Assembly: GCA_000004695.1 (NCBI GenBank)
Contig: CM000155.2
Location: 3,168,001 to 3,232,000, forward strand
Length of the DNA: 64,000 bases
Direction of reading: 5' to 3'
From: Dictyostelium discoideum
Taxonomy: Eukaryota
Part shown: positions 4,296-19,944 of the stretch, in pieces
Layout of the letters: every line of letters starts with the position of its first letter
Position numbering within the stretch: position 1 is the first letter of the stretch
Translations under genes and position numbers: made by a program
The notes under the pieces: model-generated
Seen by the model: the letters and a program-made list of their open reading frames with translations, nothing else
Told to the model about the DNA's origin: nothing
The model's database searches: none

Positions 4296-4935
4296 TTTTT
4301 TTTTTTTTTTTTTTTTTTTTTTCAAATTAATAACCTCATCTCAATTTGGAATGTTCTAGTTTTATTTAATTTTATTTTAGTAATATTTTTATAGAGCCAG
4401 TTGTTTTTTTTGTCAGCAAATAAAAAGTAAATCAGCTATTTTTTTTTGATAAAAATATCTGAGCCTTAAAATAGTTTGGGTTAAACTTGGACAATTCAAT
4501 AAATTGAAATATTTCCATAAAAATCCATACTCTGGTATTGTAGTTTTAGGACCATCAATATAACAATTATATTTAGTTTAGTAAGAGGTATAATATTATT
4601 TATTATTTACCATTAATTATTTCTGTGTTCAAGGGTCACAAAAGTATATACAAATTATCAAAAGTATTACTTTTGATTAAAACATCTTTTTTGTCCAAAC
4701 TTTTTTCTAAATTTTTTTTTATTTTATCGTCTGGTTCGTGATTGATGTTGATGACATATTTGAATTGTTTTTTTTTTATTTGATTTTTATCCACAATTTC
4801 GCTTATTTTTTGTAGGCATTTGTGTTGCTTAATATTTGTGGTGTTGTTTGTAATTTTCATCTTGTTTTCTTTCTATTATTTTATTTTACTTTAAAAAGTT
4901 AAAAATCTGGAAATTTTCTGATAAACTTGAGTTCC

Positions 4936-4970
<35 letters not shown>

Positions 4971-4990
4971 TTTTTTTTTTTTTTTATTTA
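4296..4990 (-). mobile_element. Short internally deleted TRE5-like non-LTR retrotransposon copy (copy A): 5' UTR fragment, ORF1 N-terminal ~65 codons, 3' region, oligo(A)
   Basis: Minus-strand ORF 4636-4860 (MKITNNTTNIKQHKCLQKISEIVDKNQIKKKQFKYVININHEPDDKIKKNLEKSLDKKDVLIKSN) aligns with the N-terminus of ORF1 of the full-length copy (LDKISEAIYHTQIELKQYKFMINIPDEISNNLKAELEIHLQGDDKIIISKN). The upstream segment 4861-4935 matches the 5' UTR of copies B, C and D (ttaaaaatctggaaattttctgat...cttgagttccc). A poly-T run at 4296-4322 is an A tail on the - strand. Confidence 0.5.
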
Positions 4991-5606
4991 TAGAAAGTAC
5001 TGAGTGAATTATTTTATTTTTTGAGATGTTTAGGAAGTGCTATTGCGTGAAGAGGTGAGTTCCATTGTCTGCTAAATTGTAATAGCTTTAGCGAGATTAA
5101 TGAGTCTAATTTATTTTATTCTTCTGGCCGTTGCTTTGATTTGATTCTTAATTTTTTGTTGTCTATGAATTATTATTTTTTTTTCATCGTGAATCAGTTT
5201 GTTTCTTTTGTACCAAATTTTTTCGAATATGATAGCTATTAAATTGGCTATTAGTGCAATTTGTAGATGGTTTAAAATCTTCACATTCCAGGTGTGAGTG
5301 GTGTGTCCACACTTAGTTAGGGTGTAGTTGAAGATTTCTTGTGTGTTTTTGATGTGGGCTTTGCAGTTGAAGAATATGTGTTCTGAAGTCTCATCTTCCC
5401 CAAACTGTTGGCATGGCATGTTGTATATTTTTGGTAGTGCTTTCAGTGTGTATCTCCATAATAAATCTCTACCTTTCATGTTTATTATTTTTTTAATTTC
5501 TTTAAATGGAAGGTGTTTGCTATTAATGTTGGTCATTATTTCTTTTTGGCCATGAATTTTTTTTTTTTTTTTTGAATTTTTGGCCATGAATTGGAATACG
5601 ACGTTT
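4991..5606 (-). mobile_element. 5'-truncated TRE5-like fragment: C-terminal 158 codons of ORF2 plus 3' UTR, ending ~20 bp upstream of tRNA-His
   Basis: Minus ORF 5111-5587 (...KGRDLLWRYTLKALPKIYNMPCQQFGEDETSEHIFFNCKAHIKNTQEIF...) is homologous to the zinc-finger C-terminus of the full-length ORF2 (KGRDLAWRYLLKALPKHHGENCHSCKEEESSMHIFFECKSIKQNIDSIY). A T-run at 4936-4985 on the + strand is an A tail on the - strand. Confidence 0.55.
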
Positions 5607-15336: not shown

Positions 15337-18300
15337 GCTCAAAAATCAACTTTATAACATGGAATTGTAGAGGATTCACTGATAACCCAAACAATCAACA
15401 CAATTCCTACCAAAAAGCTGTTGACACACTACAACTACTTATATCAAAACTTCCACCTCGTCCAACGATCTCAATACTCACTGAACTCAATTTATCACCA
15501 TTACAACTTAGACATGATTTTCCCGATCACATCATCTCTGTCACCAAACGAGGAAATGGTGTAATCATCATTAACCATAACCCAAACACACTCAAACTCA
15601 AACACATATCAACAATTGATGGTAGAGCTATTTTAGCAGACGTTATATTTCCAAATCAATTACCAATTGGTATTCTTGGAATTTACGCACCAGCATCAAA
15701 TAATACCATCAAAAAGAATTCATATGCAACTTCACTACAAACACTTCTCCACAACCACTCAACAAACCCAATACCAAACCAATCCCAACATGTATCTATT
15801 ATCGCAGGAGATTTCAACTGTACCCACAACGACAATTCACTATTAGATGATATTATCCAATCCTACACATACCAACACCATCTAATTGATCAAGGTGAAT
15901 TTAAAAACACTCCAACTCATACACATGGTAACAGATTAGATAGAATATATACTCAATACAATAGAATAGACCCTGAAAATATATATACACAAGTCCACCA
16001 AATTCCATCTTCATTATCAGATCATAATCCAATATCAACAACAATTTCTTCACCTTTTCAAATAAATAAACATAAGAAAAGATGGATATTATCACCTGGT
16101 ACTGCAAATGACCATGAAGCAATCAATATTATCAATCATTTAATAACTAATCACAATAAAACATCAATCAATCAATTTACAAACTGGTCAAAAGTAAAAT
16201 CAAAAATTATTAAAACTCTAAAAAACTATCAATATAACAAAGACAAACAAACTCAACGTGCAAAACAAATACTATTAGAAAAAGCAGCAAAATTCAAACA
16301 TCTTGAAGAACAATGCATCGCTGAATACAATATTATATGTAACAAAAACAAATTACACCAAAACCACACAAACATATTAAAAAAACATATAAATGGAGAA
16401 ATACCTAGCAAGTATCTATCAGCAATACTAAACAAAAGATCAAAAGATGCAAAAATTGAATCAATCCAATATGGTAACATCATTACATCCGACCCCGACC
16501 AAATTGAAAATGCGTTTGTTGAATTCTACACAAATCTATATAGCTTACAAATATGTTGTCCAATTACTCACCAGCTCATACTAAACACATGGCCCATCAT
16601 AAAAAATGAATACTGGAATGGTTTAGACTCACCATTTATACAAGATGAAGTTGAAGCTGCAATTAAAACCTGTAACCCCAACAAATCACCCGGTCCAGAT
16701 GGCGTTACAAATGCATTCTACATTAATCATTTAAACCAAGTTAAACCAATTCTCACTACATTATTCAACGATATACTAGAAAATCCTCACCACATCACAA
16801 CAGAATTCACCGAAGGTCTTATACACACAATATACAAGAAAGGCAACCCCTTACTCATATCAAATCGTCGTCCCATCACACTTCTAAACACTGATTACAA
16901 GATCCTCTCAAAAGTAATCAATGCACGTCTTCTGAGAATACTTCCTTTCATCATCAACAACAACCAAACTGGTTTCGTACCCCACAGATTCATCATAGAC
17001 AACATCATCAACATCAATGAATTAATCAACTACCTCAAATCTAAAAACCTCCCTGGTATCATCACACTATTTGACTTCTTTAAAGCATTTGATTATATCT
17101 CTCACGATAGTATTAAAAGAACATTAATTCATATTGGTATACCAATAAAATTAATAAATTTAATCCACAAGCTATTATCTGACTCACAAGCAAAAATTTC
17201 AATTAATGGTAAAACGACCAGAAAATTCGATATTAAAAGAGGTGTAAAACAAGGTGACCCAATCTCAGCCACTTTATTTGTAATTGTAATTGAAAATTAG
17301 CAAGAACAATAAATGCAGACAATACAATAATTGGATTACCAATTTCACCCAATCCACAAATTAAAATCAAATTCACCCAATTTGCAGACGACTCTACAAC
17401 ATACAACATCAACTACGAACAACAACAACAATCAATCAAACATTTCGATAATTTCTGCGCTTCAACATCATCATCATTAAATTTTGACAAAAGTGCAATA
17501 ATAGAAATCAACCCCCACAAAATCACTGATAAACACATAATAAACAACATTCCACAATCAAAAAGAATTCCAATAACCAAAAAAGATCAATCAGAAAGAG
17601 TCCTTGGCTATTTCTTTAATCATAATGGTTTACATAGGAAATTACCAGAAACAATGAAAACACTGATCAAATCATTAGTACTATGGAAAACTAGTGGCAC
17701 AACATTAAAAACAAAAACAACCATCATAAACACCTACTCACTATCACCAATAACATATTTATCATACCTTGAAGAATTTACAAAAGATGAAGAAATTCAA
17801 ATTAATAAATTAATCTCATGGTTTATGAATTCTCCCGCAAATTCTGAATCACCAACTCTCAATACCAATTCCATTGAAAACAACTCATCAACCATCCATT
17901 CACGTGCAAAAATACCTTTGATGTGTTATGATAGATCATTAAAACCATTAAAAGAAGGTGGTTGGGGTATGTGGAATATACAACTACGACAAGTTGCTCA
18001 AAAGATTTGGATATACAACAGATTTTTACAAATGCATAAATCTGCAAATAATTCAATATACATGATAAGTTGGATGGATCAAATCATCAACAAATCAATC
18101 TCTTCTCCATACCTTATAAAAATCAAAAAAGAATGGGAAAACTATGCAACTCAAATTGGACATCTAAAAGATAAAGTTCAAATCCTACAACCAATATTAA
18201 TAAAAAATCAAACCTCTCAAACAAACACAAATAATATTCCACTACCACCAACACTCAAAGAAATCTACTCGACAATACTCAACAATCACCAATGTAAATC

Positions 18301-19150
18301 AAAAGACTATATTGGCAAGAAATATTCAGATCTACTTCTTACTTCGCACCAACAATCAATACAACTATTATGGAAATACACACACGACCAACTATTTGTC
18401 AAAATTCAAAAATTAAAAGATCCAAAAGGCCGTGATACAATGCAAAGATTCCATGCTAGATGTCTTCCGATTAATCATCTACACAACAAAGTTTGCCCCA
18501 TTTGCAACAATGAAATGAATAATGATCCCTATGGTCATTTGTTTTTCAATTGTCAGCACACAATCAACTTCATAAACCACGACAAATTAAAATATTTTAT
18601 ATATAAAAATTGCAATGGAAACAAAAACTGGTCACTAACAAAAAACCAAACAACAAAATTATACACACTCATTTATAAACCACAAACAAACAACAAAGCA
18701 TTTAAACCAGATCCAACTATCAATATTAATTTTGCAGAAAACGCACAATATAAAAAATACAGGTTCAACTGGAATTATATAAACACAAATCTTGATCTAG
18801 TCAGAACACACGCATATTGGAACATAATCTCATTAGTTATTCACCAAATATGGATATGGTTATGCAAATCATTATTTGACATCAATATAACTCAATCAAT
18901 TGATAATTGGAACAACCAAATAAACAACACAACACTAGATTATGATATATTAAAATCAAAATGGCACAAGCTAATAAGATTGGAATATTCAAGAACATTA
19001 TCAAACTTTAACCAATACTCAATTAAAAACAACCTCACAAAAACTCAAAAAGAAACCCAATGGTCCGAAACAATCAAAAAATTTAAAAAAGAATGGAGCA
19101 TAAACACTAACGAACCAATTCCAACAATTACACCACCAATTAATTATTAA
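15333..19150 (+). CDS. TRE3-like ORF2 (endonuclease-RT-zinc finger, ~1270 codons) interrupted by a single -1 frameshift at ~17295-17298
   Basis: Frame 3 ORF 15333-17300 ends ...FVIVIEN*. Frame 2 is open from 17294 to 19150 and continues LARTINADNTIIGLPIS...QFADDSTT.... Inserting one T into gaaaatt(t)agcaaga fuses both into one ORF (…IENLARTINAD…). Confidence 0.6.
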
Positions 19151-19944
19151 TTACCTAATCTAAAATAACATACCATTTTAAATTCACAAAAACTAAAAAA
19201 CCTAAAATAAATAAATAAAAATAAAATACTAATTGTATACTACAATAGTTTATTTATATCAAAAAAAAAAAAAAAAACTCTCAAATATCCACAAAAAAAA
19301 CTTTTTAATTATTTTATAAACAATTTTCATGATTAAGGGAAAAATATTTAATAAAATTCATAAAACCTATTAATTGGTTATTGTTTATTTCTTATAATGG
19401 ATAAATTGACTAATCATTATTATAAAAATAATAATAATAAAAATAAAAATAAAAATAATAATAATAATATCTACACTATATTTTTAAATTAAAATTCCTT
19501 ATTTGAAAATTCAAACTAAAAAAAAAGGATAACTTCTTTACATTTTACAACCAAAGTCCATTAATAAACTGTTAATTATAGTTTTTTCCTTTAAAGGATA
19601 AACATTGATCAATATTTTAAAAAAATAAAAATAAAATAAAAAAAAAAAAAAGTGTATCGATTCTTTATTTCTATTTTATAAGTAAGAATTTCATAATCTA
19701 TTATTTATATAATTTTTTAAAAGTTGGTTTTGATTTTTTTTTCTACAAAATAATAATAAAAAAAAATTATTAATTGAAATATACAAACCAGAATTTTGAT
19801 TTCAAAAATTAATTTTTAACAACCAAAAAATAAAAAAAAACAAAAAAAAATAAAATAACATACTTTTTTTTTTATTTTAGATTTTTTCACCATCACTCTA
19901 GGAAATTAAAAATCAATTGGAGTGAACTTTTTTTTTATTTGTTT

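Follow-up and report, generated by a model that had tools for sequence, protein, structure and literature searches.

tRNA-gene targeting by the TRE5 and TRE3 retrotransposons has been studied since 1989. Here, we describe a nest of such elements around tRNA-His(GTG) and tRNA-Asn(GTT), the only two tRNA genes that ARAGORN finds in a 64-kb stretch of the Dictyostelium discoideum genome, both on the + strand (assembly GCA_000004695.1, contig CM000155.2, forward-strand positions 3,168,001 to 3,232,000; this whole stretch is called the window, and positions are counted from its first letter). Of the 15.0 kb that extend from 4297 to 19277, approximately 12.7 kb are TRE-derived, taken as the sum of the listed parts. 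With a probability of about 95%, the locus is an intergenic region filled by repeated insertion of tRNA-gene-targeted retrotransposons lacking long terminal repeats (non-LTR), namely TRE5-A, TRE5-B and TRE3. This kind of nest is already known and the locus, which lies inside the annotated AX4 reference, is a textbook example of it.

TRE5 elements insert in opposite orientation to a tRNA gene, 40–54 bp upstream of it, and TRE3 elements in the same orientation, 40–150 bp downstream, in relation to an internal or an external B box (PMC5911963, from which the concept of the external B box, or ex-B, is taken). The target-site duplications (TSDs) of TRE5 are about 10–16 bp long (PMC9012585). A TRE is carried by 61% of D. 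discoideum tRNA genes and both types by 13%, and tandems arise by repeated targeting (PMC5006619, PMC5391098). Published data implicate the binding of TFIIIB by the protein of TRE5 open reading frame (ORF) 1, and a B box is required. TRE5-A, or DRE, is built as AB-ORF1/ORF2-BC in the 5,647-bp TRE5-A.1 and as AB-ORF1-BC in TRE5-A.2, with an A-module of 200 bp and a B-module of 290 bp at the 5′ end, a B-module and a C-module (134–137 bp) at the 3′ end and the ORF1 start inside B. TRE5-B and TRE5-C have no 3′ B-module, the C-module terminates TRE5-A and TRE5-C and not TRE5-B, and the ORF1 product of TRE5-B is 25% identical to that of TRE5-A (PMC3159450). The TRE5-B consensus is 5,971 bp long and represents 25 copies (Glöckner et al. 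2001, tabulated in PMC5006619), and TRE5-C is described by an 879-bp partial consensus with no full-length copies (PMC5006619 Table 1).

Among more distant systems, mammalian L1 resembles TREs in its ORF2 with APE and RT domains, poly(A), TSDs, target-primed reverse transcription (TPRT) and frequent severe 5′ truncation, and the 5′ monomers of mouse L1 resemble TRE A-modules as tandem promoter modules of about 200 bp in variable number. However, L1 does not target the genes that RNA polymerase III (Pol III) transcribes, and its ORF1p is unrelated to TRE ORF1. Yeast Ty3 and Ty1 share with TREs the safe-haven integration beside tRNA genes through the Pol III machinery, although they are LTR elements that use an integrase, are unrelated in sequence and insert at other distances.

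The geometry of the locus agrees with these rules. Four insertions upstream of tRNA-Asn are named E1 to E4, E1 being the nearest to the gene; a further TRE5-A fragment adjoins tRNA-His, and a TRE3 element follows tRNA-Asn. E1 and the tRNA-His fragment lie 50 and 41 bp upstream of their tRNA genes, and TRE3 lies 62 bp downstream. TSDs measure 11–15 bp for E1, 10 bp for E2, 13 bp for E4 and 14 bp for a micro-insertion at tRNA-His. Independent copies elsewhere, at tRNA-Arg, -Phe, -Gly and -Lys genes, lie 41–50 bp upstream or 49 bp downstream and have TSDs of their own. Identities, boundaries, TSDs, orientations, distances and an age gradient are all direct observations at this locus. A preliminary description had attributed the nest to position-specific integration of TRE5 upstream and TRE3 downstream, with which orientation, distances, nested TSDs, other copies and the grouping of the ORF2 sequences agree. 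No identity to DIRS or Skipper was found, and APE and RT homology is present on translation.

The two tRNA genes are listed as HisGUG-9 and AsnGUU-17 in Table S2 of Spaller et al. 2017 (PMC5391098); their spacing, 8,521 bp, is the same in the window (14148–5627) and in the published table, and the counts of experimental TRE5-A(bsr) integrations are non-zero at both (PMC5391098). Three ORFs of the window are exact D. discoideum AX4 proteins, DDB_G0293630 (8971-12405, -), DDB_G0293632 (12508-13872, -) and DDB_G0293732 (5111-5587, -), and therefore nothing at the locus is due to chance. The dictyBase identifiers of the window genes are not mentioned in the papers and supplements searched. The features are collected in Table 1.

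Table 1. Retrotransposon insertions, TSDs, tRNA genes and B boxes of the nest (window positions)
Feature	Positions	Strand	Remarks
E1, assigned to TRE5-B, 5,382 bp	8716-14097	-	5′ end faces tRNA-Asn; both ORFs intact
E1 proximal TSD AAAATTAATAGTTGA	14098-14112	-	-36 to -50 from tRNA-Asn +1
E1 distal TSD TTAATAGTTGA	8705-8715 (up to 8719)	-	exact string search; TSD 11-15 bp
E2, assigned to TRE5-A, ORF-less, 761 bp, A-A'-B-C	7944-8704	-	single element with own TSD
E2 TSD TTAATAGTTG	8706-8715 and 7934-7943	-	10 bp
E3, candidate stub, 13 nt ttattccctgttc + A12	7909-7933	-	between two TTAATAG flank copies
E4, 3′-terminal ~64-77 nt of C-module assigned to TRE5-A + A-rich tail	7810-7892	-	94-96% identity to C-modules of comparison loci L008, L009, L010
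E4 TSD AAAATTAATAGAT	7893-7905 and 7797-7809	-	13 bp
tRNA-His fragment assigned to TRE5-A, truncated at both ends	4666-5553	-	ORF2 C-terminal region, poly(A) 4940-4990, 3′ B-module 4666-4939
Putative micro-insertion, TTC + A17	5557-5576	-	20 nt, within 5543-5590
Micro-insertion TSD TTCATGGCCAAAAA	5577-5590 and 5543-5556	-	14 bp; exact string search
Copy B, relic assigned to TRE5-A, 510 bp, half A-module + B + C + A9	6501-7010	-	about 10% diverged
Copy B degenerate TSD, GGTACGATTTTTTT / GTTACCATTTTTTT		-	14 bp; string search
TRE5-B-like 3′ terminal motif (ctagaaca..caaattgag.tga.gttatt) + A26	4297-4359	-	local score 28 vs 10±2 for shuffles
TRE3 element, 4,995 bp	14283-19277	+	APE and RT; ends in A17; same orientation as tRNA-Asn
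TRE3 TSD CTCTCAAATATC	14271-14282 and 19278-19289	+	12 bp; exact string search
tRNA-Asn(GTT), AsnGUU-17	14148-14220 (chr6:3182148-3182220)	+	ARAGORN; Pol III target shared by both stacks; internal B box 14200-14208
tRNA-Asn external B box GTTCAATTC	14252-14260	+	pattern scan; 32 bp past tRNA-Asn end, 22 bp before TRE3 5′ end
tRNA-His(GTG), HisGUG-9	5627-5697/8 (chr6:3173627-3173697)	+	ARAGORN; internal B box 5677-5685
tRNA-His external B box GTTCGATTC	5731-5739	+	pattern scan; 34 bp past tRNA end

TRE5 insertions upstream of tRNA-Asn

E1, with two ORFs and matches to RT and APE, is the full-length 5.4-kb TRE5-like element that the preliminary description had placed on the - strand. From 5′ to 3′, it is composed of half an A-module followed by A69, a B-like leader, ORF1 (12508-13872, 454 aa), ORF2 (8971-12405, 1144 aa, with APE, RT and a Zn motif), an (AAT)n-rich 3′ untranslated region (UTR) and A15. 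ORF2 matches the Pfam family RVT_1 at E = 5e-37 and Exo_endo_phos at a sub-threshold E = 0.0018, and its C-terminal region has homologues that are named ‘RT zinc-binding domain’. The ends of E1 were set from four copies with identical ORF1 in an independent long-read assembly, GCA_054883475.1; these (loci L001-L004) adjoin tRNA-Gly, -Arg, -Asn and -Phe, respectively, and have different flanks. Every TRE5-B copy compared begins GAGTAAGAGAAAAAAC and finishes GAGTGATGTTATT(A)15, and E1 is 99.0–99.4% identical to the other copies. Its 5′ end, opposite in orientation to tRNA-Asn, lies 50 bp from the tRNA-Asn +1 position (other copies, 41–50 bp). The earlier estimate of about 35–50 bp upstream thus holds, but the end had been put at 14113, whereas the real end is 14097 and positions 14098-14112 are the TSD. 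The string TTAATAGTTGA was considered as a part of the element, as blastn homology seemed to cross it; this was ruled out by the tRNA-Arg and tRNA-Phe copies, whose ends read ...GTTATT(A)15 and which are flanked by different TSDs of their own (a T-run; AAAACTAAC).

E1 is assigned to TRE5-B because it has neither a C-module nor a 3′ B-module, its ORF1 is about 25% identical to that of TRE5-A and TRE5-C is only partial; the assignment was made from architecture, ORF1 identity and published lengths rather than by alignment to the deposited consensus. No C-module was found in the 3′ UTR of E1 (local alignment score 25 vs 23.3±1.8 for shuffles), and blastn gave no match between 8716-8970 and any B-module. 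Compared with the 444-aa TRE5-A ORF1 of comparison locus L009, ORF1 shows 24.3% global identity, or 26.6% over the shorter protein. The C-terminus of ORF2 is 43% identical to that of the tRNA-His ORF2 fragment, without a blastn match. Adding three A-modules to the length of E1 (5,382 + 3 × 198) gives 5,976 bp vs the 5,971 bp of the TRE5-B consensus, which evidently carries 3.5 A-modules. E1 further resembles TRE5-B in its two ORFs, the APE, RT and Zn motifs of ORF2, a leader with a TRE5-A-related A-module, its place about 50 bp upstream of, and opposite in orientation to, a tRNA gene and its TSD of 11–15 bp. TRE5-C, the other subfamily considered, was ruled out by the missing C-module and by its own lack of full-length copies.

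A 31-nt sequence (gtaataaag...aattaatag, with one variable pyrimidine) located between the tRNA gene and the TRE5-B 5′ end is shared by the window (14102-14131) and the unrelated tRNA-Gly locus (L001:6189-6219). It could be due to 5′ transduction, to conversion between copies or to coincidence.

The remaining TRE5 copies are made of three modules that recur on the - strand as 0.3–0.55-kb repeats, as found by filtered self-blastn and reading of the sequence. Module limits were taken from low-complexity-filtered self-blastn and exact string searches; unfiltered blastn and default repeat finding were dominated by poly(A)/poly(T). The 5′ module extends from CAGATCGAAAAAAAACAAAC to GACTT, the next, of ~297 bp, starts at CCTGGGAACTC and contains the ATG of a reading frame MKITNN..., and the 3′ module runs GTAAACC...GAGATCTAGCATCTC...CCAATT(C) and is followed by poly(A). 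The published quantitative polymerase chain reaction primer ‘TRE5-A ORF1 Rep-108’ (PMC4559204) matches at 8217, 6748 and 4755, i.e., in all three B-modules, with one indel and 0–1 substitutions. Siol et al. (PMC3159450) mutated four C-module nucleotides, T15, C26, A35 and C38, numbered from the 3′ end; the copy at 6502-6568, whose end is ...CCAATTC at 6510, has every one of them. Two reference loci were fetched through short B-module ORFs: L008 holds the 3′ 4.3 kb of TRE5-A.1, with a 444-aa ORF1 crossing the locus edge, an ORF2 that overlaps it in frame -1, and B and C behind ORF2, and L009 holds a complete TRE5-A.2. The pieces in the window are 89–98% identical to the reference loci, and alignment to these identifies A'-(A)n-B and B-(A)n-C as the canonical 5′ and 3′ junctions. 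The A-module of L009 is a 199-bp unit present 8.5 times (L009:511-2194); the last unit always breaks off after ~85 nt, with poly(A) and B coming next. In E2, the sizes are 197 bp for A, 297 bp for B and about 147 bp for (A)n and C together; in the tRNA-His fragment, ORF2 is followed by poly(A) and then by B.

These sequence matches assign the small copies and the ORF2 fragment to TRE5-A, a subfamily distinct from that of the full-length E1; their pairwise identities are 88–94%. They resemble TRE5-A in the A, B and C modules, the ORF1 start in B, the hairpin region of the C-module, the primer site and the ORF2 C-terminus. Unlike intact TRE5-A, two are ORF-less (A-B-C), a third is cut short at both ends and a fourth consists of a 77-nt tail; their divergence from intact copies is 4–10%, and one copy lies away from any tRNA gene.

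E2 had been described as two things, a solo 5′ module (8704->8508) and an internally deleted copy C. The module repeats of copy C are real; however, the ‘solo’ module is the first complete A-module (197 bp) of a single element and is followed by a half A-module with poly(A) (8507->8403), a B-module with the ORF1 start (8402->8106, 297 bp), A43, a C-module (8062->7959) and A15. E2 is 96–98% identical to the TRE5-A 5′ end in L009 and 92–96% identical to the 3′ B-C parts of L008 and L010. E3, as read from its flank and tail, is possibly an extremely 5′-truncated TRE5 insertion.

The flank motif AAAATTAATAG... is present five times, at 14108, 8715, 7943, 7901 and 7805. Because the nested TSDs derive from one flank sequence (TTAATAG...), successive insertions used the same spot, and the E1 TSD takes in the first base past the E2 TSD, which fits E1 as the last arrival. 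Identity to intact copies drops outward from tRNA-Asn, from 99.0–99.4% for E1 to 96–98% for E2 and 94–96% for E4; E1 is the youngest and E4 the oldest. Such a stack corresponds to the published ‘TRE-TRE tandem’ behaviour (PMC5391098, PMC9012585).

The TRE3 element downstream of tRNA-Asn

Downstream of the same tRNA gene, the expected TRE3-like element is present as a 5.0-kb APE- and RT-encoding copy on the + strand. It begins 62 bp past the tRNA-Asn 3′ end (14283, position +63), not about 80–100 bp as had been estimated, and 22 bp past the external B box. Compared with an intact copy at comparison locus L005, it is without the first ~310 bp, comprising the 5′ UTR and 52 ORF1 codons, and it carries a +1 insertion at 14388 in ORF1 and a -1 deletion at 17295 in the RT domain of ORF2. 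The window TRE3 is a dead copy. Its closest proteins are from D. discoideum, with 85–98% identity. The intact relative (ORF1 402 aa, ORF2 1275 aa, 5,296 bp without the tail) sits 49 bp downstream of a tRNA-Lys gene, and the window copy is 98.5% identical to it. At L005, a second, older TRE3 copy follows the intact one in tandem, their TSDs being nested, and a B-C fragment of TRE5-A lies upstream of the same tRNA-Lys.

The element resembles the TRE3 family (TRE3-A/Tdd-3, -B, -C and -D) in its ORF2 with APE and RT, 12-bp TSD and oligo(A) tail. Pairwise identities suggest that the ORF2 sequences fall into a TRE5 pair and a TRE3 pair: E1 and TRE5-A are 41% identical, the window-type TRE3 and the abundant TRE3-A-like family of locus L007 are 40% identical, and values across the pairs are 28–32%, with 30% between E1 and the window-type TRE3 and 28–30% between the latter and the two TRE5 subfamilies. 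In the L007 family, of 5.2–5.3 kb and with 79 cluster members, ORF2 has no ATG and lies in frame -1, sharing 82 nt with ORF1, and TRE3-A likewise requires a -1 frameshift (PMC5911963). By contrast, ORF2 of the window-type family starts at an ATG of its own that overlaps the stop codon of ORF1 (ATGA), and therefore no -1 frameshift is needed. The published lengths are 5,229 bp for TRE3-A, 5,279 bp for TRE3-B and 4,734 bp for TRE3-C, TRE3-D being only partial (PMC5006619). By elimination on length and abundance, TRE3-A being the most abundant subfamily, and not by consensus comparison, the window element is most likely TRE3-B. DDB_G0291686 (‘TRE3-B ORF2’) is not listed in the clusters of TRE3 matches, and the label was not confirmed in that way.

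Several observations concern the comparison loci. The intact TRE3 of L005 starts with 20 extra nt, ggttcaaatcccagaaaaaa (L005:449-468), in which there is a B-box-like motif, before the 5′ end shared with other copies; these may be a 5′ transduction from a source copy placed behind an external B box like the window copy. Between the tandem TRE3 copies (L005:5779-5830) lies a 16-nt stub with A15, tacaccgcttttaggt(A)15, and its own TSD, a further ‘dead-on-arrival’ micro-insertion that resembles 5557-5576 and 7909-7933 of the window. At L006:5191-6330, a TRE3 copy of the same family is split by an unrelated, AT-rich stretch of 1.1 kb; no tRNA gene was called by ARAGORN anywhere in the 15 kb of this locus, the 3 kb before the 5′ end of the element included.

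tRNA-His and the outer part of the nest

ARAGORN confirms tRNA-His(GTG) at 5627, embedded in the array. The ORF2 C-terminal fragment recognised earlier as 5′-truncated adjoins this gene and is truncated at its 3′ end as well. It begins TGGCCAAAAAG, passes the ORF2 end and poly(A) and stops inside the 3′ B-module at 4666; its original 5′ junction is 41 bp from tRNA-His (-41). Sequence reading and exact string search found no end of B, C-module, tail or distal TSD. The preliminary description had treated 4666-4939 as a separate element, copy A; alignment to L008 shows it to be the 3′ B-module of the fragment. The ORF2 fragment does not extend over 4360-4665, and beyond that region only 4297-4359 is TRE-like. 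The ORF2 part is DDB_G0293732, with a 60-bp deletion. Its protein is 92% identical to DDB_G0276495, named ‘TRE5-A ORF2’ in a dictyBase-derived table (PMC12405889), and at the DNA level the fragment and the full-length TRE5-A.1 of L008 share 95–96% identity. The 158-aa ORF2 fragment and the 73-aa B-module ORF, used as protein queries, returned only short fragments named ‘hypothetical protein’. The junction ATCAAAAGTAAT|ACTTTTGAT of the fragment is a perfect palindrome.

Between the fragment and the tRNA gene, a 14-bp TSD encloses ‘TTC’ and A17. Its proximal copy, at -37 to -50 from tRNA-His +1, is placed like the E1 TSD (-36 to -50), and ‘TTC’ with poly(A) would correspond to the C-module's final 3 nt with its tail. 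This may be an almost wholly 5′-truncated, abortive TRE5 insertion atop the older fragment. Downstream of tRNA-His, no TRE3 was found, the next 800 bp having no TRE similarity despite the external B box.

Copy B of the preliminary description (7010->6501) is made of TRE5-A modules, but the upstream-distance rule does not extend to it. A degenerate tRNA beside it was considered and rejected: ARAGORN, a B-box scan and Rfam at E ≤ 10 found no tRNA, tRNA-like remnant or B box nearby. The Pol III genes now present thus leave at least one insertion unexplained. In the alignment, copy B has diagnostic variants in common with the B-module at tRNA-His. At the far end, the TRE5-B-like tail at 4297-4359 has no TSD that we could find.

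A direct repeat of 108 bp with 82% identity (- strand) links 7560->7453 to 5603->5588 plus 4665->4594 and brackets a 1.85-kb segment with tRNA-His, copy B and a palindrome. The uninterrupted copy at 7560 looks like an empty-site copy of the upstream flank of tRNA-His; read in this way from its sequence, it would imply that the TRE5-A fragment lost about 200 bp, including the distal TSD, after insertion. In the near-perfect palindrome (7249-7453, 205 bp), which may be a foldback element or one similar to miniature inverted-repeat transposable elements, arms of 82 nt with 95% complementarity enclose an AT spacer of 41 nt. It has no match among the comparison loci. Another inverted repeat, 6281-6434, with 49-nt arms (92% complementary) and a 56-nt spacer, is located between tRNA-His and copy B.

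Proposed history and alternative explanations

In the proposed mechanism, TRE5 would recognise the Pol III complex on the tRNA gene, a protein-level step taken from the literature, nick about 36–50 bp upstream and insert by TPRT with its 5′ end towards the gene. Each new TRE5 would re-use the spot, duplicate the same 10–15 bp flank and displace older copies outward. At tRNA-Asn, the E4 C-module fragment would have arrived first, followed by the 25-nt E3 stub, the ORF-less TRE5-A E2 and the intact TRE5-B E1. At tRNA-His, a 5′-truncated TRE5-A would have come first and then lost its 3′ end by deletion, with the 20-nt abortive insertion later. TRE3 would have been inserted already 5′-truncated and acquired its two frameshifts since. 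The ORF-less TRE5-A copies are presumed to be internal deletions between the 5′ and 3′ B-modules, which could have arisen by recombination between B-modules, by a template jump of the reverse transcriptase or by mobilisation in trans as ORF-less copies.

Some points weigh against a nest built purely by targeted insertion. Copy B has a TSD yet no Pol III gene or B box near its 5′ end. TPRT by itself cannot yield the tRNA-His TRE5-A, which has no tail, distal TSD or 3′ end, so a later deletion has to be assumed. The TRE5-B-like tail is about 290 bp of non-repeat DNA away from the stack, the 108-bp repeat shows duplication or rearrangement to have had some part in shaping the region as well, and the TRE3 subfamily label comes from elimination and not from a reference consensus.

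The reading of the locus as an artefact of mis-joined repeats in the reference assembly is hardly credible. Window segments 19909->14006 and 14009->5452 are collinear from end to end with the tRNA-Asn locus (L003) of the long-read assembly, at 99.97% and 99.3%, with every junction kept; the agreement with an independent assembly therefore establishes the nest as real. At least one repeat array does differ, and this is the only structural difference: at the E1 5′ end, the window has 0.5 A-module and A69 (13955-14097), while the long-read assembly has 5.5 tandem 198-bp A-modules and A42 (L003:5814-6918). The half A-module and the length of 5,382 bp also set E1 apart from the TRE5-B consensus. 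Other TRE5-B copies have about 2, 3.4 and 5.5 units. Possibly, the reference collapsed the array or the stocks differ, such arrays being variable and similar to promoter monomers. The same variation in A-module number between assemblies would suit an origin of the array chiefly from one or two founder insertions that underwent local segmental duplication or unequal recombination, as would the direct repeat bracketing the tRNA-His segment, the diagnostic variants that copy B has in common with the tRNA-His B-module and the non-TPRT 3′ junction of the tRNA-His fragment. Nevertheless, such an origin is very improbable: E1, E2, E4, copy B, the micro-insertion and TRE3 each have their own TSD and poly(A) tail, members differ in subfamily and truncation length, the TRE5-A copies are pairwise just 88–94% identical, and identity to active copies drops with distance from the tRNA gene.

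Within the account by repeated targeted insertion, the origin of the ORF-less copies allows different explanations. E2 and copy B may have been inserted as full-length elements or TRE5-A.2 and later have lost their ORFs by recombination between the 5′ and 3′ B-modules, in the manner of solo LTRs, rather than belong to a mobile ORF-less lineage; the chances of this are a little short of even. Both follow the canonical A-B leader collinearly in their 5′ half and the canonical B-(A)n-C trailer in their 3′ half, switching somewhere inside B, and ORF1 removal cuts retrotransposition by 99.5% in published assays (PMC3159450). However, the clean TSDs and tails equally fit the insertion of an already deleted RNA or cDNA, formed, for example, by a template jump of the reverse transcriptase, and the same ORF-less structure occurs elsewhere, short B-module ORFs of 80–123 aa being annotated at several other loci. 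It is unlikely, though conceivable, that the A-B-C TRE5-A copies form a non-autonomous lineage similar to short interspersed elements, copied in trans and occasionally inserted away from tRNA genes (copy B), and that the 198-bp A-modules are promoter monomers like those of mouse L1, whose arrays (0.5 to 8.5 units) are under-represented in the AX4 reference.

Beyond annotation, the significance of the locus is small, TRE-TRE tandems and double occupancy of tRNA genes having been published already. It offers a worked example of how nested duplications of one 10–15-bp flank reveal the order of arrival, and three ‘dead-on-arrival’ micro-insertions show how often TPRT aborts. The A-module discrepancy affects element lengths and promoter copy number in the transposable element annotation of the D. 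discoideum genome.

Two host ORFs flank the nest. The first, of 962 aa (1374-4262), ends 35 bp before the A26/T26 run at 4297 and has a weak match to EPL1; it has no exact protein in the collection searched and probably has introns. The second (20338-20769) encodes a protein with a signal-peptide-like N-terminus. With the TREs subtracted, the intergenic space that holds both tRNA genes is about 3.3 kb.

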